Shown here in pieces: positions 1,902 to 20,018 of a DNA stretch of 64,000 bases. The stretch spans positions 21,630-85,629 of the forward strand of contig JAJPIF010000019.1 of the NCBI GenBank assembly GCA_021324885.1, read 5' to 3'. The notes beneath the pieces are model-generated. The model made no database searches and was not told the origin of the DNA. It saw only the letters and a list, made by a program, of their open reading frames with translations. How positions within the stretch are numbered: the first letter of the stretch is position 1; every line of letters begins with the position of its first letter. This stretch comes from Pseudomonadota bacterium (GTDB lineage Bacteria > Desulfobacterota > Binatia > Binatales > Binataceae). Both the position numbers and the translations under genes were made by a program.

Positions 1902-1909
1902 TGAAGTCG

Positions 1910-4162: not shown

Positions 4163-4363
4163 GGCTCAGTCTCCTCGGCGCGGCCAAGTTACCACTATCT
4201 CCAGACTGACACCATGAGAAAGTCGCGTCTACTGCGCAGCAGCAAAGTCGCTGCCGCCATTGGCCTGCAGCTGAAAACGGAAACCGCTCGCTCATCGCGG
4301 CGGCACGCAACCACAGCAATGAACGAGCGGAATTGGGTAAAGACAAGCGATCTTTGTCGCGCG

Positions 4364-4657: not shown

Positions 4658-4814
4658 CAAGTCCTCTCCTGGCTGAATTCCGCCGCCGCCGCGGCGCGCT
4701 AAGCATATGGGGGCGTTTGTATCCGCTGCCTTGCCCTTTTGCAAGCCGCGGATGATTGTTATCGATTACTGATTGGGTCCGGCGCGGCAGCCGGAACAAC
4801 GGAGGGTCCTCGCG

Positions 4815-5954: not shown

Positions 5955-6069
5955 ATCCTCGCCATCTGAACGCCAAAAGAAAGCGCGCCGGCCGCCGGCT
6001 GAACGTCATCAGCCTCGGGCGGCGCCCTTTTTTGCTGCCGCCAGATGTTGCAGGCTCAGCCGATGCAAA

Positions 6070-6543
6070 TCATTCGCGGTTTCCGTAGGGATATTTCCCA
6101 TCCGCGCGCGCCACGTAGGCTTCGATCAGGAATCCGTCAGGGTCCTCGAACAAAAACATGAACCCGGGGGCGTCCTCCTCGAAATTGCCGATAGTGTGCT
6201 CCAGCACCCGCACGCCGCGCGCCTTCAGTTCCGCCATCGTCTTTTCGGGATCGGTGATGCCGACCGTGAGATGGGAAAGGCCCAGCGAATTGGTCCGCGG
6301 CCGTTCCCGCAATGGCGGGCTGGCCGGCCGATCGAAATGGATCAATTCCAGCCGGTAGCCGTCGCGCATCAGCAGCCACACGGTGAAGTCGGCCTCTTCG
6401 AATCCCATGACCTTGGCCGGGCCGCTGCGGTCATAGCGCAGCTTTGCGATTTCCTTGAACCCCAGCACATCGCGATAAAACGGCACCGATTTTTCCGGGT
6501 CTGAAATACCGATCGAAACATGCAGAAACTGAGTAATCGCCAT
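6070..6543 (-). CDS. VOC (glyoxalase/bleomycin resistance/dioxygenase) family protein
   Basis: 157 aa with two beta-alpha-beta-beta-beta modules: FLHVSIGISDPEKSVPFYRDVLGF and LSHLTVGITDPEKTMAELKARG. Confidence 0.8.
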   Translation of the reverse strand: MAITQFLHVSIGISDPEKSVPFYRDVLGFKEIAKLRYDRSGPAKVMGFEEADFTVWLLMRDGYRLELIHFDRPASPPLRERPRTNSLGLSHLTVGITDPEKTMAELKARGVRVLEHTIGNFEEDAPGFMFLFEDPDGFLIEAYVARADGKYPYGNRE

Positions 6544-6830
6544 CGCACTCTCCCTGCTGACCTGCGCGCCCGCTCAGGCTACCACAAAGCGCGCGGACCG
6601 GTGAAAACGCCCGGGCAAGTCGCGACGCCGGCGCGAGGAAGCCCCTTTAGCGATCGCTAACCCGCTTGTCAGCAAAGCGATGCAACTGCCGCTCCCACCC
6701 GCTGCCGGCCGTCCGGAGCTCGCCTGCGGTCGAGCGGTACGCATTGGGCAGCGGAGGTCTTCTGGGCTCGGTAATTCACCCGCGGGGCTGAGCAGATCGC
6801 CGCCATTTCCGGCGAAGTACCTGATTTTGA

Positions 6831-6877
6831 TTCGCGCGCCCGGAGGGATTTGAACCCCCAACCCTCGGATCCGAAGT
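6831..6877. repeat. att site (distal copy): duplicated 3' portion of tRNA-Arg
   Basis: ttcgcgcgcccggagggatttgaacccccaaccctcggatccgaagt is identical to 19941-19987. Confidence 0.85.
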
Positions 6878-6981
6878 TAGGCGAAACCCGTCCGCGATTG
6901 TCCAGAGGCTGCGTAAATCAAAGGTTTTTCAGTTACGGTACGTCCGCCGAAGTCCGCTTTGGAGCCATCGATCCTTACCCG

Positions 6982-7006
6982 TTGGCTGTCAGAATGGCTG
7001 TCAAAG
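6982..7006. repeat. 25 bp repeat, candidate integrase arm-type site (copy 1)
   Basis: ttGGCTGTCAgaatGGCTGTCAaag is identical to 19872-19896. It contains an internal direct GGCTGTCA x2. Confidence 0.45.
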
Positions 7007-7253
7007 CTTGGCCCTATTTTGGCACCGAACTTGGCACCCTATTTGGCACCAAGGTTTTCACGCTCGTGGCCGCGCGGCGCCCTGCCTTGAGTCGATTTAA
7101 CGTGCCAGAGAACGATTGCCTGATCAGTTATCTTGCCCAACGCAGACGCCAGGCCTCGGCGACTTTTGTTACCCTCCTCAGATGTCTCACAAGGTGACAA
7201 GAGTTCTTGCCCCGCAGTGCTGGGGTACGAGTACTGGCAGTCGTTCATGCCGA

Positions 7254-7934
7254 TCAAATTGAAAGCACCAACCGGCTTTGCGACGTACTTCGAAAAAAGA
7301 CTTTGCAGAAATACTCTCCGAAATCGTCGCAGTACTCGAAGATGCCCTTAACGACAAAGTCGCGCCCTCGTTTCGCAGAATCAGCCTCTCTCCTGTCGAA
7401 CCAATTTTCGAAAAGAGCGGCGCTGTCAGATTCGCCCCCAATGTCCTTAAGCCCGGCGACCAGTCTTACTTCGCCGGTTTTCGAGTCTCGCAATCTGGCC
7501 ATGTGGTGGATATCGAAACGTCCAGTGGCACCGCCGGAATGGGACAGATCAACGTTGAATCTCAGCGCCGGAAGGTGCCCACTGTTATGAAAATACAGCA
7601 CAACGCCTGACTTCTTGCTGGCTCCGTCGGCACTTTCGATGAATTGACCAACTAATCCGTCTTTTCGTCCCATGCTGACGTAAGGCCGAGCATTTGCCTG
7701 GAAAAATTGACTATTTTGATTGTCAGATTCGCGAGTAAACTCCGTATAACAGCCCACGGCCAGAAGCGTGAGAAAAAGAATGAAAAGGTTCCACTTAGCT
7801 AGGCATAAGGCCGATTCCTCGAGCCTAAGCCGTGCAATTTCAGGGTGAAGCACTGATAGCGGTTGCGTTTCCTTTCCGCGAGCAGTCTTGCGGCGCTTCC
7901 ACCTCGCCACTGCCGGGGCCCTCCTCGCCGTCAC
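7254..7934 (-). CDS. Hypothetical membrane-anchored protein (element cargo); start uncertain
   Basis: 226-codon ORF starting at GTG 7934; an alternative GTG is at 7853. One hydrophobic helix, WNLFILFLTLLAVGCY, then a ~170 aa domain with no motif I recognise. GC is visibly lower than in the flanks. Confidence 0.55.
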   Translation of the reverse strand: MTARRAPAVARWKRRKTARGKETQPLSVLHPEIARLRLEESALCLAKWNLFILFLTLLAVGCYTEFTRESDNQNSQFFQANARPYVSMGRKDGLVGQFIESADGASKKSGVVLYFHNSGHLPALRFNVDLSHSGGATGRFDIHHMARLRDSKTGEVRLVAGLKDIGGESDSAALFENWFDRREADSAKRGRDFVVKGIFEYCDDFGEYFCKVFFRSTSQSRLVLSI

Positions 7935-8050
7935 TTCACTCCCAATTTCCGCGCCTCGCGCAGCGCCACGCTACGCATCCAGGCGCTAATTCCAAGCCCG
8001 GCCTTACCAGCCGCCTCGACCAGCACGCGCTTTTGCGCGGCCATCACCAA
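7931..8050 (-). pseudogene. Possible ribbon-helix-helix (CopG/MobC-like) remnant
   Basis: Short frame (L/V)MAAQKRVLVEAAGKAGLGISAWMRSVALREARKLGVK* resembles the two helices of an RHH domain. The upstream in-frame IRPSAL could be the beta strand but has no start codon before it. The stop overlaps the GTG of the next ORF (GTGA). Confidence 0.25.
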
Positions 8051-8476
8051 GGCCGATGGCCTGATTCGGTTCGGCCGATTTCCCCGTTTCGACCCGGCGG
8101 TGGTCAGGGCTCGTATCGCAAAAGAGTTATTTGGCCGCGGGCTCGACCGGGACGGGAATCGCGAGCGGAAGCTTCACGCGGCGTGACGATTGAAATCCAC
8201 CCCAGCGCGGGGTAAAAATCCAGGACTAGCCCGTGTGAGCACCCCCTTTCTCATTGGGCTGGCAGAAGGAGCGGGGCCGGCGCCATCAGGTCCCGCTTTC
8301 TTTCCCAAAACCGCGGTAAACGCCCTTCTGCCGCGTCCGGATTCGCCGGACGATGATTTACCCGTCCGCCGCTCGAAAAGCCCAAGCCCGCCAGCGTGGC
8401 TAAGCCGCGCGCACACTTTGACGAATGCCCCTGAGCGGGAAACATCAGCGTAAGTCCATGCCGCCGCCGGCCCCGG

Positions 8477-10597
8477 CTACCGCAAAATCCCAGTCGGAAA
8501 TCCCGCCCGGCTCATGCGCCCGAAGTCGCCAGCGCGGATGGCGTTCTTTACATGCTCTACGACCTGCTCGCCCAGTTCGCGGCCGTTGCTGCCCGACACA
8601 TGAAGCGTCGGCGAAAAGTGGATATCGCCGCCGCGGTTGTTCGTAGTTGAATTGCTGTACGAGGCGCGGATCCCGGCACCCATGCTGCTTACTGCCGACA
8701 TATCCGAACGCGGGATTACGTACTCGCCGGCATGAACCAGCGCTAAGCCGGTCTGTGTAACCGGGCCGCCCTCGGCGAAGCCGAAGATGCCGCCGATCAG
8801 GCCGGCTATGCTTCCGATGCCGCTGGCTATCCCTCCGAGCCCGCCGCCGCCGCTTCCGCCGCCCAGCAATCCGCCCAATGCACCAAAGACCGTGCTAAAG
8901 ATCGACGAGATCGTCGGCGTCAGGTCTTGCCAAACCCTCTCGAACAGGGACTGGATCTGACTCTGCGGGAACAGCGCCTGGAATAACTCATTGTAGCTCT
9001 TGGTCAGTAGCGTGTCAGTGAACCGCTCGGCCATCCGGACGCCTACTTCTTCGAGCGCTCGGCCGGGACCACCGCCGCGCCCGCGACCCCGAGGTGTCAT
9101 CGCGGCTTCGATTACGCTCATCGTCCCGCCTGCCGCTTCGCTCGACATGCGGGAAATCATTTCGTCATGCTGGCGCTGCTCTTCGGCCAGGAACTGCGTG
9201 AACGCATGTAAATTCTTGTTGTAATTTTCGCTGGCCAGTCGCGCCTGCTCGCTGAAATACTGCGTCCAGGCGTGGAGCCGGCGGTTGAAGGCCTGCGCTT
9301 GCTGATTGTCAAAGGCCTGCTGCTGGCGCGCGAATTCGTTGGCCGCTTGCTGCTCTTCGACCAGGGCGCGGCGGTATTCGATCGACTGCTGGCCGAACAG
9401 CTCTTTGGCCTTTTCGACCACGCTCATCATGATGCCGACCTTCACGACGGCGTTGTTCTGAGCCTCAGCCAGCTCGAGTTGCTGCTCTTCTACGAAAGCG
9501 CGGAATTGCTCTTCCGCCGCCTTGTGCGCAGCCGCGGCGCCGCCAGTTTTGGTGACATTGACTTGGTCGCCCGGGCCCCCGACGACGCTGCTGCTGAAGT
9601 TGACCAGCTTGTTGATATCTTCAAGCTGCTTGCGCGCATCGTCGCCTGCCTTGCGCCATAAGTCGGGGCTGAACGGGTGCATTACGACCGTGCCGGCGAT
9701 TTTCAGCCCTTCGATGTACTCAGTGAGATATCCGTTGAGCTTGATCAGCGCCGGCGTTATTTCGGTCGCGACCGTGCGCCACAAGCTCTCGCCCGAGATT
9801 TTCAAGGCTTCCCACGAGCGATGGAGCCGGTCGGCGTCTTCCGCCTGCTCGGTCGTCAGCGGATTTAAGTCGCTGTACGCTTTTTCAAGCTCGAGGATTC
9901 CCTCGCCCCCCTCGCGCATCACCGGCAGGAGTTGCGTTCCCATGCGCGAGCCGAGAAGAGTTGCGGCTTCACCCAACTTTTCGGTCGAATCGCGCGTCTG
10001 CGCCATCGCATCCGCCACGCGCAAAAAGACTTCGTGAGGATTCAGACCCTTCAGCTCATCGATGCTGATCCCGAACGCAGCAAACGCCGCCTGCGCCTGC
10101 TTGCCGCCCTGCTCGGCCTGAACCATTTTTTCGGAAAGCATGGTCATGGAGCGGGCAAGTGCGTCCATCGGAACGTCGGCCAGGCGTGAGACGCCCGCCA
10201 GCGCATTCATCTGCTCGACTGTGATTCCCGTGCGCTCGCTCAGGTGAAGGAGTTGGACCTCGAGCTCATTCGCGCCGGCGGCGCCCTCGATCAGCCGGTG
10301 GCCGAGATCGATCGCGGCGCCGACCAGGAAAACATCGGCGAGCCCCTCAAGCGTGGTCTTAACTGACTCTGCGGCCTCGTTGATTTCCGCGAAGGCGCCT
10401 TTTGATTCATCGGCTGACACCTGCATGGAGCGCGTCAGCTTGGTTATCGAGGCCTGGCCACCGCGCGCCATGCCCTCGAGCGCGCGCTGGGTTTCGGCTG
10501 CGGACTGAGCCGCAATCCGCGCGCTCTCGTTCATCTTACTGACAAAGTCTGAGATCTCGGCCCGGATCACAGCTTGTAATTGAGCATCACTCGGCAT
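8477..10597 (-). CDS. Phage tail tape-measure protein
   Basis: 706 aa, alpha-helical and Ala/Gln-rich. TMP core-like stretch GITVEQMNALAGVSRLADVPMDALARSMTMLSEKM...FAAFGISIDELKGLNPHEVFLRVADAM...LGSRMGTQLLPVM, plus a Gly-rich segment GGGSGGGGLGGIASGIGSIAGLIGGIFG. Confidence 0.8.
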   Translation of the reverse strand: MPSDAQLQAVIRAEISDFVSKMNESARIAAQSAAETQRALEGMARGGQASITKLTRSMQVSADESKGAFAEINEAAESVKTTLEGLADVFLVGAAIDLGHRLIEGAAGANELEVQLLHLSERTGITVEQMNALAGVSRLADVPMDALARSMTMLSEKMVQAEQGGKQAQAAFAAFGISIDELKGLNPHEVFLRVADAMAQTRDSTEKLGEAATLLGSRMGTQLLPVMREGGEGILELEKAYSDLNPLTTEQAEDADRLHRSWEALKISGESLWRTVATEITPALIKLNGYLTEYIEGLKIAGTVVMHPFSPDLWRKAGDDARKQLEDINKLVNFSSSVVGGPGDQVNVTKTGGAAAAHKAAEEQFRAFVEEQQLELAEAQNNAVVKVGIMMSVVEKAKELFGQQSIEYRRALVEEQQAANEFARQQQAFDNQQAQAFNRRLHAWTQYFSEQARLASENYNKNLHAFTQFLAEEQRQHDEMISRMSSEAAGGTMSVIEAAMTPRGRGRGGGPGRALEEVGVRMAERFTDTLLTKSYNELFQALFPQSQIQSLFERVWQDLTPTISSIFSTVFGALGGLLGGGSGGGGLGGIASGIGSIAGLIGGIFGFAEGGPVTQTGLALVHAGEYVIPRSDMSAVSSMGAGIRASYSNSTTNNRGGDIHFSPTLHVSGSNGRELGEQVVEHVKNAIRAGDFGRMSRAGFPTGILR

Positions 10598-10642
10598 TGT
10601 ATTTTGGCCTCAACTATCTATGTAAGTTATCAACGCGGTTAC

Positions 10643-11005
10643 TCAGTTCAGCAATTCCGGTTTTGCAGCCATAGACCCGGTCACGTCGACCCTATAGTTC
10701 GCAAGAGCATAAATCGCGTCGTGAAGGTCGAAGAGGCCAGCGTGTTCCCGCAAGATGTCGGGATCCAAACCGGGATAATTCGGTCTCAGGAAAGCGGCGA
10801 CTATCCACACCTCGCAATCAAATTGAGCCTCGACGTCTCCCCTTAAAACAGCTTCATCCAGCAACGGGTGTACGAGAGCGAGGACAGGGGTAGCGTGCTC
10901 GATTGTTTCATCGCTGGATGCAAGCTGGAATTCCTGGCCGGCGATCACGACGCGAGGGCCTGCGAGCAGCGGATCGCGGATTTTCCCGCTGTACCAATTC
11001 GCCAT
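10643..11005 (-). CDS. Hypothetical protein; possible tail assembly chaperone by position
   Basis: 120 aa, immediately upstream of the tape-measure gene. Its start overlaps the previous stop (TAATG). No diagnostic motif. Confidence 0.5.
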   Translation of the reverse strand: MANWYSGKIRDPLLAGPRVVIAGQEFQLASSDETIEHATPVLALVHPLLDEAVLRGDVEAQFDCEVWIVAAFLRPNYPGLDPDILREHAGLFDLHDAIYALANYRVDVTGSMAAKPELLN

Positions 11006-11325
11006 TACTCATTTTCCTCGCTGTGACTATCCAGGTCGAATCGACTGAGTTTTTCCCGCAACTCGGCGATGATGCGATCGCAGTACACGCCCACGCTGTG
11101 ATGGGTTTTCGCCCTCGCCGCCATCTGTTCGGCGACATACCGGATGGCCGGCGCTGTGCGGTCGAACACTTGGGCGATCTGAGCGTCGGATATGCCGATG
11201 GCGCGCAGGGCATAGGCCGCAACCGCCTGGCGAAAATGCTCGCGCTCCACACCCTGCAGCTCCCTCATGCCCAGCACTTCGCGAACGATCGGGCGTAGAT
11301 ATTTCGTGTCGATTTTCATTGACAT
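11005..11325 (-). CDS. Hypothetical helix-turn-helix protein (DnaA domain IV-like)
   Basis: 106 aa. HFRQAVAAYALRAIGISDAQIAQVFDRTAPAIRYVAEQM resembles the DnaA C-terminal HTH pattern. Confidence 0.5.
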   Translation of the reverse strand: MSMKIDTKYLRPIVREVLGMRELQGVEREHFRQAVAAYALRAIGISDAQIAQVFDRTAPAIRYVAEQMAARAKTHHSVGVYCDRIIAELREKLSRFDLDSHSEENE

Positions 11326-11331
11326 GTAGGA

Positions 11332-11739
11332 TTACTCGGCGATCCAGATACAAGCGCCCTGGAAGGCCGGCTCGTCGCAAATGGCAATGTGATTTAACCG
11401 GGCCTCGAGGACTTCGTGTGTCCGGCCACGTATATTGCGATCGAGGAGGTCGATTCCGACGCTTAACCCCAACGCTTTGCGCCGCAGCAAGGCAAGGACC
11501 GGCTCGTCGGCGCCGATATCGGCGAAAATTGTCAGGTGATCCGGGCTGCAATTCAGCCCCAGGGTTAGGTTCTCAGTCGACGCGATAACTGGGCCGTCAT
11601 GCTCGATTCGCAGATCCACTGGATCGCCAGCTTCTAGGCTGGCATCGAAGGCGCCGGGGCGAATGAGCATTCGCTGATATCGTTCCTTGCCGATACGCAA
11701 ATTACTCGACATCTGGTTAAAGCGGACTGCGATTCCCAC
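11332..11739 (-). CDS. HK97-family phage prohead protease (N-terminus uncertain)
   Basis: VGIAVRFNQ...IRPGAFDASL...VDLRIEHDGPVIAST...LGLSVGI...LNHIAICDEPAFQGA matches the prohead protease pattern. The upstream ~100 codons of track ORF 11332..12033 look out of frame. Start placed at GTG 11739; the next ATG is at 11712. Confidence 0.6.
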   Translation of the reverse strand: MGIAVRFNQMSSNLRIGKERYQRMLIRPGAFDASLEAGDPVDLRIEHDGPVIASTENLTLGLNCSPDHLTIFADIGADEPVLALLRRKALGLSVGIDLLDRNIRGRTHEVLEARLNHIAICDEPAFQGACIWIAE

Positions 11740-12046
11740 GGCGTGTACCCCGTCGGCCGCGTGGAGGTGCGGTTCTTGCCGGCGGCGCCGACTGTGTAGA
11801 TGCCGGCGCAAGTAGGTGGGATGGCGCCTCAATCTCGCCGGGGTCGCCGCCGGTCCAGACGAAGCGATTCTTCTCGGCATTCCAGACCCATCCGGCCGGC
11901 GGCGAGCCGTCATATTCGTCATATTCGTCGTATTGCTCAGCCGCCGCTTGGACAGGGTAGTACCAGGGGACGAGCTCGCCGAGCAGGTTGGCGGCATAGG
12001 ACCGCTCGCGCGGGGCCAGGTGGCTGAGGTCAATCGTTTGTCGCAT
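11717..12046 (-). CDS. Hypothetical protein
   Basis: ATG 12046 is preceded by AAAGGAG. The first ~80 aa look protein-like (acidic EQYDEYDEYD). The last ~30 aa are Arg/Pro-rich and overlap the protease start region. Confidence 0.5.
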   Translation of the reverse strand: MRQTIDLSHLAPRERSYAANLLGELVPWYYPVQAAAEQYDEYDEYDGSPPAGWVWNAEKNRFVWTGGDPGEIEAPSHLLAPASTQSAPPARTAPPRGRRGTRRGNRSPL

Positions 12047-12161
12047 TCGCGTCTCCTTTCTTTGCTCGCTTTTTTTCGAGTTTGCGCGCTCGCTTCTCTG
12101 CCGCCCGGGCGGCCCGCTCGCGTTCGCGCTGATGCTTTAGGAACGAGTTACTCTTTCTCAT
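12030..12161 (-). CDS. Possible small basic protein (43 aa)
   Basis: MRKSNSFLKHQRERERAARAAEKRARKLEKKRAKKGDANATND. Its ATG overlaps the upstream stop as ATGA. It is below the ORF-track size cut-off. Confidence 0.3.
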   Translation of the reverse strand: MRKSNSFLKHQRERERAARAAEKRARKLEKKRAKKGDANATND

Positions 12162-12352
12162 CGGGTCACCTCCGCGGCTCGCGCTGCTACGGCTAAGCGC
12201 TCGGAGCAGAGCCGCAGCAACTTAACCTGCAGTTGCTGGAATTCGGCTGCGGATAGTTCGGCTGGCTTGCTGTTGAGAACGTCCTGGATAAACTCGCTGC
12301 ACCATCGATCGGCGATGCGGCGCGCTAAGCTGTCGAGGTTATGCGGGCTCAT
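12158..12352 (-). CDS. Hypothetical protein
   Basis: 64 aa with ATGA overlaps at both ends, which suggests translational coupling. Confidence 0.5.
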   Translation of the reverse strand: MSPHNLDSLARRIADRWCSEFIQDVLNSKPAELSAAEFQQLQVKLLRLCSERLAVAARAAEVTR

Positions 12353-12861
12353 AATTCGACAATCTCCGGCTCAAAATCGGCTGGCGTCAGCCGGCGTGAC
12401 TCTGCTGGCGATAACAGTTCGTGGCGGCGCAGGTAGCTCGCTTGCGACTCGAAGCGTGGCGGATCGTCGGGGTCTGAGTCCGCCCAGTGCGCAGGGACGC
12501 CGTAATCGAACGCTGGGACATACGCGAACCGTTCCCAAGCCGGCACGCCGCGGCCGCCAACACGCTTGCGCGGCTGGGCAAACTGCGGCCGTTCGGCGGC
12601 GGCAGGGAAAAGCCACGCGAAGAGGTCCGCTTGCGGTGCGCAGAATCGCCACCATAGGCGCGGCCGGCGTCCTGGATGCAACCGGCTGTAATAGGCGAGC
12701 ACGTCAGGCATCACGGCGAGGGCGATCGCGCGCATCTCATCGTCGGATCGGAACATGACCTCGAACGGTTCGTCTTCGGTCTCCTCGACGAACCAGCGCC
12801 AGAGCTCTTCGCTCGTGACCTCGGGCCGGCTGGCGCGGACTGGACGCGGTTTGCGTGGCAT
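12349..12861 (-). CDS. Hypothetical phage-element protein
   Basis: 170 aa. Starts 3 nt after the terS stop and ends in an ATGA overlap. No motif recognised. Confidence 0.6.
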   Translation of the reverse strand: MPRKPRPVRASRPEVTSEELWRWFVEETEDEPFEVMFRSDDEMRAIALAVMPDVLAYYSRLHPGRRPRLWWRFCAPQADLFAWLFPAAAERPQFAQPRKRVGGRGVPAWERFAYVPAFDYGVPAHWADSDPDDPPRFESQASYLRRHELLSPAESRRLTPADFEPEIVEL

Positions 12862-12864
12862 GGC

Positions 12865-13212
12865 TTATTTCCTCTCGCTCACTGGCGAATCGAGATTCAA
12901 CTCGCGCATCGCGCGCTGGTAGATGCGGGCGCAGGCTGCCTGAACGGTCAAGGCGGGATGGGGTCGCGTCACCCCATGTTTGTCTGTGAAGTATGGGCCC
13001 TCGCGCTCGACGGTCTGGCGCGCCTGCTCGCTACGATCGAGAGCTTCGAGCGCGGTCTGTAAATGCGCGAGGTGATGCACTTCGAGAACGTAGGCCCTGG
13101 CGATCTCGCGCCACAGGCGCCTTGACTTGTCGCTCAGGTGGCGCGGCGGGGCCGGGATCGTCGGCCGGCGAAGCGGGCGGAATGGAATGGCGTTGCTCTT
13201 GGTCATGGTCAT
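12865..13212 (-). CDS. Phage terminase small subunit, P27-family-like
   Basis: 115 aa. PPRHLSDKSRRLWREIARAYVLEVHHLAHLQTALEALDRSEQARQTVEREGPYFTDKHGVTRPHPALTV...MRELNLD follows the P27 TerS pattern. Confidence 0.65.
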   Translation of the reverse strand: MTMTKSNAIPFRPLRRPTIPAPPRHLSDKSRRLWREIARAYVLEVHHLAHLQTALEALDRSEQARQTVEREGPYFTDKHGVTRPHPALTVQAACARIYQRAMRELNLDSPVSERK

Positions 13213-13294
13213 TTAAGCTGAAATTCGTTCTCGTTCATGTTTTTGTGATTGCAGGCGCGGTCGCAGCCGCGCCGCGTCAGAGATTTGCACCCCC

Positions 13295-13567
13295 CTACCC
13301 CCGACCGTCTTTGAGTTCGGCGATGCGAGCGAAAAAAGCTTCGCTGGCGCGGCGCAGGTAGCGATCGAGCAAAGTCTCAAGCAGGGACCGTTCAGCGACG
13401 TCGCAGATCTGAGTAATCTCGGGAAGCGAACCGAACTTTTGCACCATGGCGCTGCGCACGGTACTCATCACTTCGGCGACGTCGTTATTCAGCTTGGCTT
13501 CGGTCTGACTGCTCAACCATTGCTCGATGCTTTTCAGCCCTTCCTGGATGAATTGTCTTGAATCCAT
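13295..13567 (-). CDS. Hypothetical protein
   Basis: Start at the internal ATG (MDSRQFIQEGL...), preceded by AGGAGA. 90 aa, helical. Confidence 0.55.
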   Translation of the reverse strand: MDSRQFIQEGLKSIEQWLSSQTEAKLNNDVAEVMSTVRSAMVQKFGSLPEITQICDVAERSLLETLLDRYLRRASEAFFARIAELKDGRG

Positions 13568-13578
13568 TTTCGGATCTC

Positions 13579-14244
13579 CTACGCGGATCCCCTCGCAGGT
13601 CGCGAGAATAACCATTCGGTCGGCTCGGCGAGCTCGGGCACTTCCGCGAGCATTGCTTCAAATTTCCGTTGCCTCTCTTCGCCATCGGCGATGAGCGCAA
13701 TCACGGTGTCTAAGGCGCGATCGAGCGCGACCAAGGCGGCGAGGCGCGCGCGAACTGATGGCGCATTGGTCGTCGTGTGGAATTCTTTGGTCAGGCTCAA
13801 CGCATTGTATTTCCCGGTAAATCGCTGGCTGGTCTCGAGCGATTTGCTGGTTAACTCGCGCAGCTCACGGATCCTTTCGCGATAACCTGAGATTTCCGCG
13901 GCAACCTGATTACGCAGGCGCGTCTCCAGCAGCGCTATTCGGTTGTCGGCACGCATGGAGCAGTCGAGGACGTCGCTATCGGCTTTCATCCGCCGATCGC
14001 GAGCGGCTTCGAATTGGCGTTCCGCTTCAATGGCTGCCTGGCGCGCGTCTTCTGCTGCCTGGCGCAAACCGGGCAGCTCCTTCATGGCCGCGGCGCGGAT
14101 CTCGGCGATCTCGTCGATAATCTTCTGGCGCTGCTGAGTTTCGAGCTTTTCGTTTTCGGTGATCAGCTTGCGGCCGAGGCTCGTCTGTTTGAACCAGTCG
14201 GGGAAATTTCGGACCTGCTGCTCTCGTTCTAACTGAGTATCCAT
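13579..14244 (-). CDS. Hypothetical coiled-coil protein
   Basis: 221 aa with AAAGGAGAA upstream. Long heptad-like Glu/Arg/Ala-rich helices. Confidence 0.6.
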   Translation of the reverse strand: MDTQLEREQQVRNFPDWFKQTSLGRKLITENEKLETQQRQKIIDEIAEIRAAAMKELPGLRQAAEDARQAAIEAERQFEAARDRRMKADSDVLDCSMRADNRIALLETRLRNQVAAEISGYRERIRELRELTSKSLETSQRFTGKYNALSLTKEFHTTTNAPSVRARLAALVALDRALDTVIALIADGEERQRKFEAMLAEVPELAEPTEWLFSRPARGSA

Positions 14245-14275
14245 TGTTTTCTCCTTTGCTGTTTGAATGTTTTGC

Positions 14276-14750
14276 TCAATGCCAGACCGCGCCGAACGTA
14301 GTATCCAAAGCGCCCGGCGTATACTGAGTCGGATCGCTGTTGACGCTGTTGCAGATCAGCACGCCATTTTTGACGTACAGACCAGGACGAAAATCGAATA
14401 CCCAGTCGTTTGCCGGATTGGACTGGCATTGCTGCGCCGGTGCGATCTGATTGCTGGTCGGCGGCGCGGCAGCCTGGTCGTAAATCTGGATTATACTGCG
14501 CCGATCCGGTGCAGTGTCCCCAGGCGAACATTAGCGATGCTTGCGCCGCGTCCGGGAAGGCTTGGCAGTTCCCCAGTTGGCTAGACGTCTCGCTGGTCAG
14601 ATCGCTCTTGGTCGCGGGACCGCCGGCTACGCTCGGCGTAGGCACCGGGTAGGGCGTTGGCGTCGGCGTGGTGGCGAAGGCTTGTGCGGCGGCGAGCGTC
14701 ACCCAAACCGCGGCGACGATAATGAGACGCGTGCAATTCGATGATTTCAT
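14276..14750 (-). pseudogene. Secreted protein gene interrupted by a frameshift
   Basis: N-terminus MKSSNCTRLIIVAAVWVTLAAAQAFA is signal-peptide-like and is followed by a Thr/Pro linker in one frame. A plausible C-terminus, ...SIIQIYDQAAAPPTSNQIAPAQQCQSNPANDWVFDFRPGLYVKNGVLICNSVNSDPTQYTPGALDTTFGAVWH*, lies in another frame. The switch is near the C4/G4 run at 14518-14521. Confidence 0.5.
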
Positions 14751-14953
14751 TCCGCTTCCCTCCACCTCTGAATCATTCGGTCTATTTCTTCGCGCTCTTG
14801 GGCGCGGCGTGCCTCTTCACGCCGGCGCTCCGCTTCGATCCGATCGGCTGCCTTTTGACATGTCGTGCAGCGCTGGAATCGGTTCGCGCCGGCCCACCAC
14901 GGCGATGTCCCGGCGCAGTCAACGCAGCGCCAGATTTTTGCTGGGCTTCTCAT
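14747..14953 (-). CDS. Small zinc-ribbon protein
   Basis: MRSPAKIWRCVDCAGTSPWWAGANRFQRCTTCQKAADRIEAERRREE... has CxxC...CxxC. ATGA overlaps with the replicase stop and with the next start. Confidence 0.5.
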   Translation of the reverse strand: MRSPAKIWRCVDCAGTSPWWAGANRFQRCTTCQKAADRIEAERRREEARRAQEREEIDRMIQRWREAE

Positions 14954-17355
14954 GCAACCCATCCATCGGCGGCGGCGACGCGGTCGATCTCGGCCTTTTC
15001 GCTGTCGCGGCCTGCATATCGCAGCGCGGCAAGAAAGCGATCCCCAACTTCCGCATCCGCCGGCGCGCCGGGCTTGACCGGCCGCATCGGGCCGCGGAAG
15101 ATGCCGCGCTGATGAACGCTGAGAAAGCTCGAGCCAGGGAACATGGCTGCAACACAATCGATCGTGGCGGCCAGGTCGCCAGGATTCCGGCCACCCTGTT
15201 CAAGGTGCAGTGCTGTTTGGGACTGCCGCTGGCCGGAATTAGGCCTTATTTTTACTGGGTTTTCTTGCGCTGCCGGGATTCCGGCCGATACCCCGTTGTC
15301 TGTATATGAGTGAACATACCGGCCGGAATCCGCTATCTCTGAAGCCCTTGGGGCAGAAGGACTTTTTGAATCGGATTCCGGCCGCCCTTGGGGCAGAAGG
15401 CCGGCCGGAATCGGGTCGTCGCTCCCCCTACTCTCGCAGCCATTTTCATTTCTGAAATAGTGTGCCGAGAGTATAGAATATATATAGTGCGGATCCGCTT
15501 TCGTTCCTTTCCCGCGCACAATCCAGTCACGGCCTATGCCGGCGTCGATAATCGCTCTTGCCCGGTTGCGCCCGACGCCGTTATTCACAAGGATTTCGAC
15601 TGCGGTAGTCCGCTTGGGAACCGGCAAAGCAGCCTTGAGCGCAGCGACAGCCTCTCGCTCTTTCTCCCGGCGCAACTCGATGGCAGTGCCCTTCGCCTGC
15701 TCGTGCTCCAGCTCTACATCTGCGGTCACGTCGGCTACGGTCCACTCGCCCTCGTCGGGCAAACGAACCTCAAGGATGAAGGGATCGGGCTCTTCAGCAA
15801 GGCGGAATTTTGAGGGCACGAACGCCAGCCGGTAGGACGGGCGGCGCTTACGCCGTTTTGAGCGGCTCGCCCATTCTGCTTCACCTGCCGGGGGCAGGCA
15901 ATCGATCCACGATTCCTTTTTCGCGTCGAGCGGAAGGTCGGTCGCGTCCCGGACCTCATACACGATATCGACGCGATCCCCGATGACTCCGGAGCCGCGG
16001 AGCACCTGGCCGTCTTTGCGCGTGTTCGCTAAGGCGAGAATGCCCGGACCCTTGCGCCCGGTGTCGAGTAGGCTGGCGATCGCCTTTCCGTTGTCGCCGC
16101 CTTCGCCGTCCTTGACCGTCTCCATGGCTGACGAGAGCGAGTCCAGCGCCACCAGCTCGTACTTGCTGAATGGAAACGTCGCCCACGCCTTTGCATCGGT
16201 CAGTGGGGGCACCTCATCGCGCTTCATGACATCGAGATTAGTTAGGTCGCCCGCTCCCCATGCTTTGAGCCGGCGCTTTAGTTCGGCGGGCGGGTTGTCG
16301 CGATCGAGTAATAAGACCTTACCCGGCTCGAGCTTTTCGCCCAGAAAAAAACCGCCGGTCGCCTTCGCTACGACGAGAGCAAGCAGGAAATGGGTTTTAC
16401 ACAGGCCGCGCGGACTGACTATTACTGTGACGGCCTGGCGCACGATCAGATTACGGACTATCCAGTCAGCTTCCTGCGATTCAGCGGCGATGAAGTCTTT
16501 GGCGGTGCGGGCTTTCGACCAGACGTCGCCAGCGCTCTGGGTCTTACGCTCTTCGGGCTCGGGATAGACTGTGTAAGCGCGATCGACTTTATCGGCTGCC
16601 TTATCGGCGGGGAAAGCGGGCTTACATTTAGCGGCCGCCTCCAGTACCAGCTTGCGCGCCATATCCACTGGAATACCGGCGCCGCGGAGTTTGCACGCGA
16701 ATTTGAAAAGCTGCTCGTCTCGCTGGCCCTCCGGGACGCCCGCCAGCACGGCGGCACTGTCGATCGAACCGCCAGCACCCGTTGTCGCGTTGCGGGAATT
16801 CTGTAGCAGGGCCACGAGGCTCGCGGGGAGTGGCGCGACCTCGATCTCGGCTGGGCTGTAGCCCACCTCGAAGCGGTATTCACCGAGGAGGTGATTCGAC
16901 GGAGGTGCCAGGACATAACCGCCGAGCGACTTGATATCGACGCCCGGTCCCAGCTTGTTATTACCGCTCGAAATTTCGCCCGGGCTTCGAAACCAAACAT
17001 GCAGTCCGCCGCTCGGCGTGAGTGTGCGGACGGTGTCAGGAAGAGGATGGGGCAAACTGGCTACCAGCGCCGCCCATGTTTCATCGCCTCCATGCCGCGG
17101 GTCGATATCGACAACAGCTAGTCCGGAGGGTCCGCAGGATATTGCGATGTTTGCCGGCTCGCGCCACCAGCCCTCGATCTGTGCGCGATTGATCGTCGCC
17201 TCGAGGTGGCCATTGCGCGGGATGGGATGCTTGCCGGGCGAGCCGCAGTCGGACTTGCGGCAGGTGCACTTGCCGTCGTCGATCCAGTGGGTGGGAAAAA
17301 CGTGAAAACCGTGCTCGGCGTACCAGAGGGCCGCCGCTTTTTGCTTCGGGCTCAT
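14950..17355 (-). CDS. Bifunctional primase-polymerase (Prim-Pol) / helicase-type replicase
   Basis: 801 aa. N-terminus AALWYAEHGFHVFP...NIAISCGPSGLAVVDIDPRHGG...GGLHVWF...GYVLAPPS is Prim-Pol-like. The central region has a RepA/AAA-like P-loop (IVSPRGLCKTHFLLALV...LLLDRDN). Confidence 0.85.
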   Translation of the reverse strand: MSPKQKAAALWYAEHGFHVFPTHWIDDGKCTCRKSDCGSPGKHPIPRNGHLEATINRAQIEGWWREPANIAISCGPSGLAVVDIDPRHGGDETWAALVASLPHPLPDTVRTLTPSGGLHVWFRSPGEISSGNNKLGPGVDIKSLGGYVLAPPSNHLLGEYRFEVGYSPAEIEVAPLPASLVALLQNSRNATTGAGGSIDSAAVLAGVPEGQRDEQLFKFACKLRGAGIPVDMARKLVLEAAAKCKPAFPADKAADKVDRAYTVYPEPEERKTQSAGDVWSKARTAKDFIAAESQEADWIVRNLIVRQAVTVIVSPRGLCKTHFLLALVVAKATGGFFLGEKLEPGKVLLLDRDNPPAELKRRLKAWGAGDLTNLDVMKRDEVPPLTDAKAWATFPFSKYELVALDSLSSAMETVKDGEGGDNGKAIASLLDTGRKGPGILALANTRKDGQVLRGSGVIGDRVDIVYEVRDATDLPLDAKKESWIDCLPPAGEAEWASRSKRRKRRPSYRLAFVPSKFRLAEEPDPFILEVRLPDEGEWTVADVTADVELEHEQAKGTAIELRREKEREAVAALKAALPVPKRTTAVEILVNNGVGRNRARAIIDAGIGRDWIVRGKGTKADPHYIYSILSAHYFRNENGCESRGSDDPIPAGLLPQGRPESDSKSPSAPRASEIADSGRYVHSYTDNGVSAGIPAAQENPVKIRPNSGQRQSQTALHLEQGGRNPGDLAATIDCVAAMFPGSSFLSVHQRGIFRGPMRPVKPGAPADAEVGDRFLAALRYAGRDSEKAEIDRVAAADGWVA
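15184..15490. other. Candidate origin of replication (iterons plus AT-rich tract) embedded in the replicase gene
   Basis: Six copies of GGCCGGAAT/ATTCCGGCC in alternating orientation, at 15184, 15231, 15278, 15321, 15375 and 15403. Two copies of CCCTTGGGGCAGAAGG, at 15345 and 15385. AT-rich gagtatagaatatatatagtg at ~15459-15489. The repeats are read in different codon phases. Confidence 0.45.
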
Positions 17356-17666
17356 CGCGGCTCTCTTTGCAGATCAGACCTTGGAGCGTGATAAACCCAC
17401 AGACCGCATCGTGCGCAGAAGACGCTACTGTGGGGCCCGCGGCGCTCGATGCGCCCATTCAGTGAGCCGCAAGCGCTGACGCCGGAAAAGAGCGGAAGTT
17501 GACCGCCGCTCATTCGGCCGCCTCGCGCCCAGACTGTCTCAAGTCGGGCCAGGCGCCGCCGCAAGTCTCGAATCTCGCGAGCCAGCAGGGCAATACTTTG
17601 CCGATTTAATTCAATGCGTGTTTTCTGCTCGCGCCGCCGCCTCACCGCATCCACCGCGCGTTTCAT
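17352..17666 (-). CDS. Hypothetical protein
   Basis: 104 aa, basic coiled N-terminus. ATGA overlap with the replicase start. Confidence 0.5.
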   Translation of the reverse strand: MKRAVDAVRRRREQKTRIELNRQSIALLAREIRDLRRRLARLETVWARGGRMSGGQLPLFSGVSACGSLNGRIERRGPHSSVFCARCGLWVYHAPRSDLQREPR

Positions 17667-17673
17667 CGGGCGC

Positions 17674-17874
17674 CTATTCCGCGCGCTGCTCCGCGGTCGC
17701 GAGTTGCTGTAAGCGTGTCAGTTCGGTCGCGGGTATGCGTATATTACCGCCGATTTTCACGGCTTTGATCTCGCCTTGGTTAATCAGGAGGTAGACCGTA
17801 GAGCGCGAGGCATCGATCAGCTTGGCGAATCTTGCCGGCTTCAAAAGCGCCGGCGTGACATCCACTTCAGCCAT
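17674..17874 (-). CDS. Excisionase-family HTH DNA-binding protein
   Basis: 66 aa. FAKLIDASRSTVYLLINQGEIKAVKIGGNIRIP matches the MerR-like excisionase HTH pattern. Confidence 0.75.
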   Translation of the reverse strand: MAEVDVTPALLKPARFAKLIDASRSTVYLLINQGEIKAVKIGGNIRIPATELTRLQQLATAEQRAE

Positions 17875-17901
17875 TTTCCATCCATCCCTGTCCGACGTTT
17901 A

Positions 17902-17930
17902 TTGACAATCGCGTATCAGTCGGCTATTTA
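17902..17930 (+). promoter_or_regulatory. Candidate sigma70-like promoter for the zinc-ribbon/integrase operon
   Basis: TTGACA (17902-17907), 17 nt spacer, TATTTA (17925-17930), about 90 nt upstream of ATG 18021. Confidence 0.35.
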
Positions 17931-18020
17931 CATATGAACGTACCGGACGAGCGCGGACGCGGTCAAGGCAAATGAAGACGCTCAATTCAATATGGACGTA
18001 ATTTAAATGGTAGGACGGAA

Positions 18021-18704
18021 ATGACACGACCCAAGGACATTGAAGAGCAGGAAATTGGCTGGCGGGTCTTCGAACACGTCGCGGAAATGGGCCCGGAACA
18101 GCAGCTCGCGTGGCTGCTTGAATTCCTTCAGCTATCATCCGACAACCTTTGGGAGCGCTGGCCGGATTTGCGCATCGAAGCTGGCGCCTTCGCCTTTGGG
18201 CAGCCGCAGACCAGGCCGATCGATATCTCTCGCGATGATCTGATCGGTCTCGTGCGGCAGGTCAGCGAAGGCGTGCGGACGCTGGCCAGCGGCCGAGAAT
18301 GGCGGCTCGAAATTCCGGCGATCACCAAGGTTTATTTACCGCGTGTTGTCAAAGGGCGGCGCGGTAAACTGCAATTTTCAGGTTGGGACAGCCAACGCGC
18401 GGTATCGGATTTCCGAACTGCATTTCTGGCTTGGGTCGACGATCTGATTTCCGATCGAGTCGCGGGCGCACGGCTGCGCGCGTGCGCCAGACCGGGATGC
18501 GGCCGGCTCTTCGTCAAGAAGAAGCGCGGTATCTATTGTAGCCAACGGTGCAGCCAGGCCGAGCGCAACAAGCGCTATTACCGATCACTCGCGAAGAAAG
18601 ACCGCCAAGCTTCCCGTCACGATCGCTACGTCGCGGAAGTCAAACGGATCAGTCCGGCCGCCGCGAAACTCGTGCGCCGGCGTACCAAGGAGAACGTGGA
18701 ATGA
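18021..18704 (+). CDS. Protein with C-terminal CGNR/FCS-like zinc ribbon; putative element regulator
   Basis: 227 aa. C-terminus ACARPGCGRLFVKKKRGIYCSQRCSQAERNKRYY is a C-x4-C ... C-x3-C ribbon followed by a basic tail. The stop overlaps the integrase ATG (ATGA). Confidence 0.65.
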   Translation: MTRPKDIEEQEIGWRVFEHVAEMGPEQQLAWLLEFLQLSSDNLWERWPDLRIEAGAFAFGQPQTRPIDISRDDLIGLVRQVSEGVRTLASGREWRLEIPAITKVYLPRVVKGRRGKLQFSGWDSQRAVSDFRTAFLAWVDDLISDRVAGARLRACARPGCGRLFVKKKRGIYCSQRCSQAERNKRYYRSLAKKDRQASRHDRYVAEVKRISPAAAKLVRRRTKENVE

Positions 18705-19849
18705 AACAGAGCAAGCGCCGTGGGCGAGGCGAGGGTGCTATTTTCCGCCGAAAAGATGGGCGGTGGGCAGCCAGCGTCAATCTTGGCTGGAAAGCCGGAA
18801 AACGCTGGCGAAAAAGCTTCTACGGCGCCACTCGCAAAGAAGTGGCGGACGCGCTGGCGAAGGCATTGCGCGATCGCCAGCAAGGCCTGCCCCTCGCAAA
18901 TGAAAAGCAGACGGTTAGCGCATTTCTGGCACACTGGCTTGAACACACGGTTAAGCCGAGCGTGCGGCCCCGCACGCATCAAAGCTACGAACTCCTTGCC
19001 CGCCTCCACGTTCTGCCCGAGCTGGGTAATAAGCCGCTTGCTCAACTCGCGCCAGAGCATGTGGAGTCGCTGCTCGCGCGCAAGCTCGCCTCCGGGCTTG
19101 CGGCCCAGACGGTTCGGCACATCAGGACCGTCTTAAAAAAAGCTCTCGGACAAGCAGTGAAACGCGGCCATCTCGCCCGAAACGTCGCCGCCATGGTTGA
19201 TCCGCCGCGGCTACAGCGGCGCCAACAGGGTCAGGTACTGGATGCGGAACAGACACGCATGCTGCTGGCCGCTGCTGAATCAGGGCGCCTGTGGGCGCTT
19301 TTGGTCATTGCTGTTTCGCTCGGGCTTCGGCGTGGCGAAATACTCGGGCTGCGCTGGCTAGACCTCGACCTCGACAAGTCGCGGATCGCAATCGGTCAGG
19401 CGATTCAGCGCTACTCCGGTATTGGCCTCAAGGCGGCCGAGCCCAAGACAGGACGGTCACGCCGCGTCCTGAATCTACCGCAAGCCTGCGCCCGCGCCTT
19501 GCGCGCCTGGAGGGCCCGCCAGGCCGAAGAGCGTCTGGCCGCTGGGCCTGAATGGCGGGACAGCGGGCTCGTCTTTACGACGCCTTTCGGCACGCCGATC
19601 GATCCACGAAACCTGCACCGCCAATTTAAAGCCTTGCTCATGGCAGCCGGATTACCGCAAGCGGTCCGATTTCACGATCTCCGGCATGGGTGCGCTTCAT
19701 ACCTGCTCAGCCAAGGCGTGCCGCTCAAAACCATTTCCGATCTGCTCGGCCACAGTTCGATCACGGTAACCTCCGACATTTACGCGCACATCGCGCCGCA
19801 AATGCTTCAGGAAGCAGCCGCCAAAATGGATGCGCTCCTTGATGGCTAA
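18701..19849 (+). CDS. Tyrosine-type site-specific integrase
   Basis: Start MKQSKRRGRGEGAIFRRKDGRW. SAM-like N-domain. Catalytic region ...GLRRGEILGLRW... HDLRHGCASYLLSQGVPLKTISDLLGHSSITVTSDIYAHI. Confidence 0.9.
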   Translation: MKQSKRRGRGEGAIFRRKDGRWAASVNLGWKAGKRWRKSFYGATRKEVADALAKALRDRQQGLPLANEKQTVSAFLAHWLEHTVKPSVRPRTHQSYELLARLHVLPELGNKPLAQLAPEHVESLLARKLASGLAAQTVRHIRTVLKKALGQAVKRGHLARNVAAMVDPPRLQRRQQGQVLDAEQTRMLLAAAESGRLWALLVIAVSLGLRRGEILGLRWLDLDLDKSRIAIGQAIQRYSGIGLKAAEPKTGRSRRVLNLPQACARALRAWRARQAEERLAAGPEWRDSGLVFTTPFGTPIDPRNLHRQFKALLMAAGLPQAVRFHDLRHGCASYLLSQGVPLKTISDLLGHSSITVTSDIYAHIAPQMLQEAAAKMDALLDG

Positions 19850-19871
19850 GTGTCCGACATCGTCCAGCCGT

Positions 19872-19896
19872 TTGGCTGTCAGAATGGCTGTCAAAG
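19872..19896. repeat. 25 bp repeat, candidate integrase arm-type site (copy 2)
   Basis: Identical to 6982-7006. Lies between the integrase stop and the att core. Confidence 0.45.
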
Positions 19897-19940
19897 AGGT
19901 GTCGGCGGATGGCTTCAATTGGGAAAAGTGCTTGATTTCA

Positions 19941-19987
19941 TTCGCGCGCCCGGAGGGATTTGAACCCCCAACCCTCGGATCCGAAGT
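19941..19987. repeat. att site (tRNA-proximal copy)
   Basis: Identical to 6831-6877. Covers the 3' 43 nt of tRNA-Arg plus 4 nt. Confidence 0.85.
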
Positions 19988-20018
19988 CCGATGCTCTGTC
20001 CAGTTGAGCTACGGGCGC
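19945..20018 (-). tRNA. tRNA-Arg (anticodon TCG)
   Basis: Reverse complement GCGCCCGTAGCTCAACTGGACAGAGCATCGGACTTCGGATCCGAGGGTTGGGGGTTCAAATCCCTCCGGGCGCG folds as a cloverleaf. Acceptor GCGCCCG/CGGGCGC, anticodon stem TCGGA/TCCGA with loop CTTCGGA, T-arm GGGGG TTCAAAT CCCTC. Confidence 0.9.

Follow-up and report, generated by a model that had tools for sequence, protein, structure and literature searches.

A probable PICI-like phage satellite with a small terminase and a tape measure protein in a tRNA-Arg gene of a Binataceae genome

Bounds and gene content of the tRNA-Arg island

We analysed a 64,000-nucleotide stretch of contig JAJPIF010000019.1 (assembly GCA_021324885.1, Binataceae), hereafter called the window, which carries a mobile island at positions 6830-19987 between two copies of a perfect 48-bp direct repeat. 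The copy at 19940-19987 is the 3' part of tRNA-Arg(tcg), the sole tRNA gene that ARAGORN predicted in the window, and from the perfect repeat at 6830-6877 and 19940-19987 it follows that the island measures 13.1 kb. It is inserted site-specifically into the tRNA-Arg gene by a tyrosine integrase, the gene for which adjoins the tRNA-Arg end, and both attachment (att) repeats are intact. With a G+C content of ~0.60 the island does not differ from its surroundings. It holds a self-contained set for excision and replication, consisting of an excisionase (xis)-like helix-turn-helix (HTH) protein and a PrimPol-AAA_25 replicase, and a late module made up of a small terminase (TerS), a 170-aa partner protein, an S78 protease-like gene, an intact tape measure protein (TMP) and a 120-aa gene linked to the TMP. 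A large terminase (TerL), a portal, a capsid protein or any other tail gene is not present in the island.

The central stretch, 8477-17874, had been described in a first-pass annotation made from the sequence as a tightly coupled string of minus-strand genes. The coordinates and translations of the open reading frames (ORFs) confirm this: all ORFs from 17874 down to 8477 lie on the minus strand, and every overlap listed there is real. ATGA overlaps join 17352..17666 to 14950..17355, the stop ending at 14950 to the ATG at 14953, 14747 to the ATG at 14750, 12349..12861 to 12158..12352, and 12158 to 12030..12161, and a TAATG overlap joins 11005..11325 to 10643..11005. The operon begins with the HTH_17 protein, followed by a 104-aa ORF, the 801-aa replicase and ORFs of 68, 173, 221 and 106 aa; it continues with TerS (115 aa), the 170-aa partner, ORFs of 64 and 43 aa and a 109-aa ORF overlapping the S78 protease-like gene, and leads via ORFs of 106 and 120 aa to the 706-aa TMP, past which lie a small ORF, a 226-aa ORF and attL. 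The island thus extends beyond the stretch first described and includes, in addition, the integrase, a zf-CGNR protein and the two distal accessory ORFs (Table 1).

Table 1. Features of the island, listed from attL to attR in window coordinates.
Feature	Position	Strand	Basis
attL, distal copy of the 48-bp direct repeat	6830..6877	none	48/48 match to 19940-19987
Accessory 226-aa ORF, GTG start, one predicted membrane helix	7254..7934	-	ORF
Small ORF of at least 39 aa, ribbon-helix-helix appearance (tentative)	7931..8050	-	Sequence inspection
Tape measure protein, intact, 706 aa	8477..10597	-	Seven PHROG TMP families
120-aa TMP-linked protein, putative tail assembly chaperone by position	10643..11005	-	L001 homologue
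106-aa ORF, TAATG overlap with next gene	11005..11325	-	Sole match itself, among the 150 best listed
S78 prohead-protease-like domain, ~155 aa from TTG at 11799 (weak call)	11332..11799	-	Pfam, PHROG 80
109-aa ORF, separate gene or 5' part of a frameshifted protease gene	11717..12046	-	GC3, translations
43-aa basic ORF	12030..12161	-	ATGA overlap; no family match (Pfam, PHROG)
64-aa ORF	12158..12352	-	ATGA overlap; sole match itself, among the 150 best listed
170-aa conserved TerS partner, lineage marker	12349..12861	-	~1000-representative family, pLDDT 92.5 model
Small terminase TerS, P27/Terminase_4 family, 115 aa	12865..13212	-	Pfam E 6e-8; PHROG 83 E 2.5e-9
106-aa ORF (90 aa from a later start)	13295..13615	-	ORF
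221-aa ORF, coiled-coil appearance	13579..14244	-	No family or PDB sequence match
173-aa ORF, N-terminal signal-like segment and Thr/Pro-rich stretch	14229..14750	-	Sequence
68-aa Cys-rich ORF, possible zinc ribbon	14747..14953	-	Sequence
Replicase, PrimPol + PriCT + AAA_25 helicase-like ATPase, 801 aa	14950..17355	-	Pfam, PHROG
104-aa ORF	17352..17666	-	ORF; no family assigned
Excisionase/AlpA-like HTH_17 protein, at the head of the long operon	17674..17874	-	HTH_17 E 1.4e-9; PHROG 66
227-aa protein, C-terminal CGNR zinc finger	18021..18704	+	Pfam zf-CGNR E 4e-5, just under cut-off
Tyrosine integrase	18701..19849	+	Pfam Phage_integrase E 8e-29; PHROG 1 E 2e-75
attR, inside tRNA-Arg(tcg) 19944..20018	19940..19987	-	ARAGORN and repeat

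The integrase, replicase and excisionase-like assignments are solid. The integrase frame is open from 18548, the ATG at 18701 being the likely start, and an ATGA overlap at 18701-18704 on the plus strand couples the gene to that of the zf-CGNR protein, which is transcribed divergently from the xis-led operon and is a candidate master regulator of the island. The HTH_17 gene occupies the position that the AlpA-type regulator has in phage-inducible chromosomal islands (PICIs), beside the replication module. In the replicase, Pfam recognised Prim-Pol (E 8e-38) and AAA_25 (E 9e-15) as well as PriCT_1, and its closest homologue, 65-67% identical, is encoded by a sibling island, L002.

Tape measure protein, TerS and the 170-aa partner

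The 706-aa protein matched PHROG TMP families 9570, 9483, 2276, 8462, 8125 and others with E values from 8e-19 to 1e-5, the alignments covering residues 26-305 and 545-619, whereas Pfam and NCBIfam gave no match. It also matched annotated TMPs of cultured phages, including Synechococcus phage S-CBS1. The traits of a siphovirus-type TMP are present, i.e. homology in the N-terminal core, a long helical middle part and a C-terminus that, as read from the sequence, is Gly-rich and hydrophobic (GGLLGGGSGGGG...HAGEYVIP). Its closest homologue, P0002 (711 aa, contig L001), is 73-75% identical over the full length. Two distant homologues, P0006 and P0011, are located in ordinary siphophage modules (L005 and L006) having the order capsid, cement, head-tail joining, major tail, small ORFs, TMP and distal tail genes; a scan of viral contigs based on the TMP returned one distant match only. 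The PHROG matches, the matches to annotated TMPs, the C-terminus and the homologues in siphophage modules together indicate that the protein is a genuine siphovirus-type TMP. Distal tail genes follow the TMP in L005 and L006, but no gene of the size of Dit or Tal follows that of the island.

The 120-aa protein encoded directly upstream had one homologue among the 150 best matches listed in the HMMER search described below, 48-52% identical and located directly upstream of the L001 TMP. As TMP and small upstream gene are adjacent in both elements, the pair appears to travel between elements and to be kept intact. The AlphaFold2 (AF2) model of the 120-aa protein (mean predicted local distance difference test score, pLDDT, 84) consists of a β-hairpin and four helices. 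BLASTP detected no similarity to the equivalent ORF of another TMP-bearing relative, L028.

TerS scores above the Pfam cut-off and, in NCBIfam, matches sm_term_P27 with an E value of 8e-8, which is under the cut-off of that model. The protein encoded next to it, 170 aa long, had been overlooked in the first-pass annotation, where TerS, protease and TMP were named as the only recognisable phage functions. We searched 1.84 billion cluster representatives exhaustively with HMMER, using eight small ORFs of the island concatenated into one query, and obtained ~1000 representatives of the 170-aa family at E ≤ 1e-3 and 352 at E ≤ 1e-10. Apart from the query's own proteins and the one homologue of the 120-aa protein, all of the 150 best matches listed were to the 170-aa ORF, mostly near full length and in proteins of mostly 160-230 aa. 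The family alignment displays the motifs HPGxRPxxWW, EPRxRxGGxG and DPPxFESQAxYLxRHGLL. None of its invariant positions is a His, Cys or Asp, residues that would have pointed to a nuclease. The fold predicted by AF2 for the 170-aa protein, with a pLDDT of 92.5, matched nothing in the PDB or the viral library BFVD. A tblastn search of 50,697 phage genomes turned up no member of the family, nor did one of 72,556 plasmids. We also rejected the idea that the ORF is a fragment of TerL, as the protein belongs at full length to a large family, its confidently predicted fold has no match in these two libraries, and invariant residues of the nuclease kind are missing.

The first-pass annotation had seen no TerL, portal or capsid gene, which is correct at the level of profile searches as well: on no ORF of the island did Pfam, PHROG or NCBIfam find a match to TerL, portal or major capsid protein (MCP). 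It had also suggested looking for cryptic pieces of these genes, and we found none. When the minus strand between 10640 and 14960 was translated in three frames with stops masked and searched against Pfam, just Terminase_4 and Peptidase_S78 were recovered. Besides replicase and TMP the largest unassigned ORF has at most 233 aa, a length into which neither a whole TerL nor a whole portal or HK97-fold capsid protein would fit. Hidden genes for these three proteins are rejected by the searches of individual ORFs and the three-frame scan.

Of the functions named at first pass, TerS and TMP were borne out, but the HK97-type protease is a weak match with an ambiguous gene start. Of the 165 positions of Pfam Peptidase_S78, 16-152 are aligned (E 3e-6), and the score of 27.8 bits exceeds the cut-off of 21; PHROG 80 gives an E value of 2e-6, whereas NCBIfam proheadase_HK97 reaches 20.9 bits against a cut-off of 59 and PDB sequences yielded no meaningful match. 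A His motif (IEHDG) and a Ser motif (GLSVG) align with the S78 protease of L001. The frame of the protease is open up to 12033, and judged by the G+C content at third codon positions (GC3) coding in it begins near 11800. Upstream lies the 109-aa ORF (recorded as P0148 in the protein collection), which over its first ~80 codons has the look of a coding sequence and at its end runs into the beginning of the protease gene. GC3 and three-frame translation thus place a switch of the coding frame from the 109-aa ORF to the protease near 11800, which is either a gene overlap of ~80 nt or a frameshift that splits one gene; a slippery heptamer is not evident where 11717-12046 gives way to 11332-12033.

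These modest scores bear on whether the island is of phage origin at all. A non-phage integrative mobilisable element, with "TerS", "protease" and "TMP" as chance or co-opted homologues, would be in line with TerS and protease scores below the NCBIfam cut-offs and with the occurrence of PrimPol-AAA_25 replicases in many kinds of element. However, three independent homologues of virion or packaging proteins stand in phage order, seven PHROG TMP families are matched by a protein with the typical Gly-rich hydrophobic C-terminus, and sister islands carry unmistakable HK97 capsid genes, so that we regard a non-phage element as very improbable.

At the distal end, the 226-aa ORF has a GC3 of 0.56, below that of the rest of the operon, and gave no match in Pfam, PHROG, NCBIfam or among PDB sequences. 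The region 7254-8476 may be accessory or defence cargo.

Islands that share the TerS/170-aa pair

In the relatives examined, the 170-aa family member follows TerS or an ORF of TerS size, frequently with its start overlapping, and in none of them is the pair followed by TerL; neither TerL nor portal was found in the sister islands examined. TerS and a 170-aa homologue occur without TerL in seven relatives (L026, L027, L011, L008, L010, L019 and L028), and in L025 a 103-aa ORF without Pfam annotation takes the TerS position. Five islands with the pair lie between tRNA-derived direct repeats and measure 8.9, 9.2, 9.3, 15.8 and 16.5 kb.

What follows the pair differs from island to island. Five relatives carry a capsid (MCP) gene. 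L011, from Terriglobia, is a 9.3-kb island between 48-bp tRNA-Glu repeats, with TerS, the homologue, an S78 protease, an HK97 capsid protein, two ORFs and an integrase; L008, from Gammaproteobacteria, has 9.2 kb between tRNA-Glu repeats and encodes integrase, AAA_25 protein, TerS, the homologue, a 128-aa protein and the capsid protein. The 8.9-kb island L010 of an Acidobacteriota genome at tRNA-Arg(cct) and L018, from an alphaproteobacterial metagenome-assembled genome (MAG), also have a capsid-type payload, the MCP of L018 being called from a PDB sequence search, and L027, a metagenome contig that is not bounded, has TerS, the homologue, two small ORFs and an HK97 capsid gene. Just outside the left att site of L010 lies a host repeat protein, an 883-aa ORF with nine tandem copies of 108 nt (positions 1530-2501; 60-70% identity to the reference copy).

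Two relatives carry protease and TMP instead. L019 is a fully bounded island of 15.8 kb between 47-bp tRNA-Lys repeats in a complete proteobacterial chromosome and encodes an integrase, an AAA_25 protein, TerS, the 170-aa homologue, two ORFs, an S78 protease and a TMP of 581 aa with a C-terminal tail lysozyme domain (PHROG 9570, E 1e-48). Its TerS is 39% and its integrase 29% identical to the corresponding island proteins. L019, which lacks TerL, portal and capsid genes, is a second, independently bounded example of the island's architecture, found in another phylum. It also contains a 58-nt direct repeat (17111-17168 and 18486-18543, 98% identical) around a 379-aa ORF without Pfam match, which may be a nested insertion. 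L028, an IMG/VR contig that starts at tRNA-Arg(cct), has integrase, DnaB, TerS, the homologue, three ORFs, a protease-like gene, a 119-aa ORF and a TMP of 940 aa with a weaker match (E 2e-6).

In two other relatives, L020 and L009, the payload was not recognised. L020, a 16.5-kb island at tRNA-Asn of a gammaproteobacterial chromosome, has three consecutive proteins of ~300 aa after the pair (10616-13576), with no Pfam and essentially no PHROG match. In L009, from an Acidobacteriota MAG, a 721-aa protein is encoded downstream (11842-14007), with neither similarity to TMPs nor a match among PDB sequences, and perhaps represents a payload of a third kind. L016, from a Stellaceae MAG, has no ORF of at least 220 aa across 9 kb around the pair, and L026, an unbounded metagenome contig, has AAA_25 protein, TerS, the homologue and small ORFs. 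Pairwise BLASTP between payload proteins of different islands was mostly too insensitive.

Two further elements share other parts with the island. Sibling island L002 (1253-9638) contains an integrase, a 288-aa ORF, xis, PrimPol, TerS (Terminase_4), a 66-aa ORF and a full TerL, with neither a 170-aa gene nor any virion gene besides TerS and TerL. TerL and the 170-aa family look mutually exclusive in the small number of cases available, and the pattern of L002 fits the 170-aa protein being used where TerL is borrowed. L001, the source of the closest TMP, runs over positions 1-10061 from a 185-aa ORF via the 121-aa TMP-linked gene, TMP, RecT, two exonucleases, an S78 protease, a small membrane protein and a portal to tRNA-Ser. 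Its left end is cut and its order is non-canonical, in that the portal comes after the protease and genes for recombination separate those for tail and head. The element is a scrambled prophage or else a satellite of a different kind.

A probable phage satellite and its proposed mode of action

The att repeats are perfect, the genes for integration, excision and replication are intact, TerS occurs without TerL, the genes are tightly coupled in translation, and the same core recurs in small bounded islands of several phyla. For these reasons we consider it probable that the island, integrated as it is, is a PICI-like phage satellite that can still move and that belongs to a lineage not described before. 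What distinguishes this lineage is a TerS of the P27 type with the conserved 170-aa partner after it and no large terminase; the 170-aa protein is its best marker. A helper-dependent satellite had been proposed at first pass, and both the att repeats and the TerL-less TerS/170-aa islands of several phyla lend support to this proposal.

Several observations weigh against a satellite. No helper phage was identified, the remaining 40 kb of the window having been checked for tRNA genes, base composition and large ORFs, and exact-pattern scans of metagenome contigs matched neither the attP junction of an excised circle nor an empty attB site. No close relatives of the island as a whole were found, exact-sequence clusters comprising 1-3 members per protein. 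The far end of L028 is off the contig, so that this TMP-bearing relative is perhaps a larger element. A Foldseek search of the PDB with the model of the 120-aa protein gave no significant match, and the chaperone role is therefore assigned by position. Finally, the protease call is the weakest of the functional calls, the frame switch near 11800 could be a sign of decay, and L001 is possibly a decaying prophage.

The last three points are also what would be seen in a decaying prophage remnant, in which deletions took TerL, portal, MCP, connectors, tail tube and distal tail genes and the rest is being lost: a protease gene that may be frameshifted where it starts, a weak protease match and a closest TMP relative in a scrambled context. 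The series TerS, protease, TMP is moreover the canonical siphophage order minus blocks, and ~540 nt downstream of the TMP gene are without a convincing gene. Against this, the three-frame scan revealed no fragment of the missing genes, small ORFs coupled in translation and an uninterrupted member of a large conserved family take up the interval between TerS and protease, and, with perfect att repeats, integrase, excisionase, replicase and TMP are all intact. The TerL-less arrangement also recurs in bounded islands of 9-16.5 kb, and its presence in several phyla implies that streamlining is a trait of the family and not the outcome of random decay. A full-length prophage version, which by the first-pass annotation would refute a satellite, is not among the relatives found. 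Taken together, these findings make decay unlikely and leave the satellite as our preferred reading.

Among known satellites, the island resembles PICIs in its size class (~10-15 kb), its tyrosine integrase and its site-specific integration, in a layout where integrase and candidate regulator diverge from an AlpA/xis-like gene, together with a primase-replicase and, in the late operon, a TerS of its own, and in lacking TerL, portal and lysis genes, which would make it helper-dependent. It differs from them by its TMP, its PrimPol-AAA_25 replicase, the combination of TerS with an uncharacterised 170-aa protein and the absence of a recognised capsid-morphogenesis gene, and its relatives come from uncultured Acidobacteriota and Proteobacteria and not from Firmicutes or Enterobacteria. 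Of the five core components in the PICI model of SatelliteFinder the island has, by gene content, four (integrase, primase, TerS and, as a candidate for the regulator, the regulator-like HTH protein); as to the fifth, a capsid-morphogenesis gene, none was found on any ORF, just the weak S78 protease match. PICIs occasionally have a serine protease, and a tail component is "forbidden" in that model (PMC10085698). With a TMP inside its att boundaries, the island is therefore expected to be rejected by it.

For cf-PICIs the defining genes are those of TerL, portal, MCP, head-tail adaptor, connector and HNH (PMC10085698), and the island is without these 6 of the 11 components. It is like them in the left arm of integrase, candidate regulator and primase, in TerS and a protease-like gene as parts of an HK97-type head module, and in that some of them have a putative tmp gene; the nearest resemblance to cf-PICIs is found in the MCP-bearing sister islands L008, L011 and L018. 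EPIPs, 11-kb satellites of Mycolicibacterium with altered tail lengths, carry TerS, capsid, scaffold, adaptor, stopper, serine integrase and TMP (PMC12822802, preprint). At ~11 kb, with TerS and TMP, without tail tube or lysis genes and with a tail length unlike that of the helper, they are comparable to the island. They differ from it by their serine integrase, MCP, scaffold, head-tail adaptor and stopper, whereas the island combines a tyrosine integrase with a PrimPol replicase and a protease-like gene and lacks capsid and connector genes. Genes typical of P4-like satellites (Psu, Delta, Sid, Epsilon, alpha primase) had no Pfam or PHROG match on any ORF.

The closest parallel for the tail comes from the PLEs of Vibrio, where every member has genes for a TMP and a tail assembly chaperone and some have one for a baseplate hub as well (Mathur, Boyd and colleagues, Nature 2026; PMC12987554). 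Virions of PLE11 contain the TMP and hub of the PLE in place of those of ICP1 and have tails that are ~10 nm shorter, deletion of tmp in PLE1, PLE4 and PLE11 lowers transduction by 96-99.9%, and putative tmp genes occur in PLE-like elements and some cf-PICIs (PMC12987554). A tape measure on a satellite, which the first-pass annotation took for new biology, was thus on record by 2025-2026 for Vibrio PLEs, EPIPs and some cf-PICIs (PMC12987554, PMC12822802). As in PLEs, the island has its own TMP beside a small gene in the chaperone position, and other tail parts would come from a helper. PLEs are the sole system for which chimeric tails were demonstrated experimentally. The helper of PLEs, ICP1, is a myovirus, and PLEs, going by their descriptions, also encode a baseplate hub, are Vibrio-specific and have a different replication module; the TMP of the island is of siphovirus type, no hub gene was found, and its relatives come from unrelated phyla. 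In summary, the island appears to share no defining gene set with PLEs, EPIPs or P4 and to be a member of none of the named families. By analogy, it may work like a PICI that uses a tail trick of the PLE kind.

The same gene set could serve to harm phages rather than to build virions. In a defence or interference island the TMP, perhaps together with protease and TerS, would be a poison subunit that derails phage assembly and protects the host. As a means of defence, interfering with the assembly of tails is known from PICIs and other islands (PMC11364771; for Rta of PLE11, PMC12987554), satellites often interfere with their helpers, and the distal end of the island holds uncharacterised accessory ORFs. 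In the one tested system, however, the satellite TMP is a structural part of the virion and needed for transduction (PMC12987554), TerS, its partner and the replicase suit an element that is to be packaged and not one for defence, and sister islands have a full HK97-type capsid gene in place of the TMP, which points to virion building. We thus judge a dedicated defence function improbable.

If the island is a satellite, its cycle might proceed as follows. Upon infection by, or induction of, a helper siphovirus the island would excise and replicate. Its TerS, probably with the 170-aa partner, would steer the helper's TerL to the island's own packaging site, so that island DNA is packaged into heads built by the helper. 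The island TMP, assisted by the putative 120-aa chaperone, would replace the helper TMP in tails that are otherwise helper-built, as in Vibrio PLEs. As a rule, tail length follows the TMP at ~0.15 nm per residue; a TMP of 706 residues would give tails of ~105 nm. Possible benefits of such a replacement are resistance to agents that target the helper TMP, entry into cells that exclude it, or a pool of tails reserved for the satellite. The protease, for which the island has no cognate capsid gene, might process head proteins of the helper or the TMP.

More tentatively, the TerS/170-aa pair may mark a large undescribed satellite lineage of soil and sediment bacteria, comprising Acidobacteriota and Alpha-, Gamma- and Deltaproteobacteria. 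The 170-aa protein would then be a new packaging-redirection factor that lets the satellite TerS use the TerL of the helper, members of the lineage would customise either capsid or TMP, and TMP replacement would be recurrent in siphovirus systems. This combined proposal is possible, and we hold it with considerably more reserve than the satellite nature of the island itself. What appears to be new here is the lineage, a TerS partner that is structurally novel according to its predicted fold, and an apparent alternation of capsid and tape-measure payloads.

If these islands are satellites, helper-parasite biology reaches phyla without characterised satellites, and soon after the experimental proof in Vibrio PLEs they would provide independent cases, of siphovirus type, of satellites with their own TMP. 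The conserved TerS partner is a candidate factor for hijacking the helper's large terminase. Satellite finders in which tail genes are forbidden would miss or reject such elements, for which the TerS/170-aa pair is a possible new marker.

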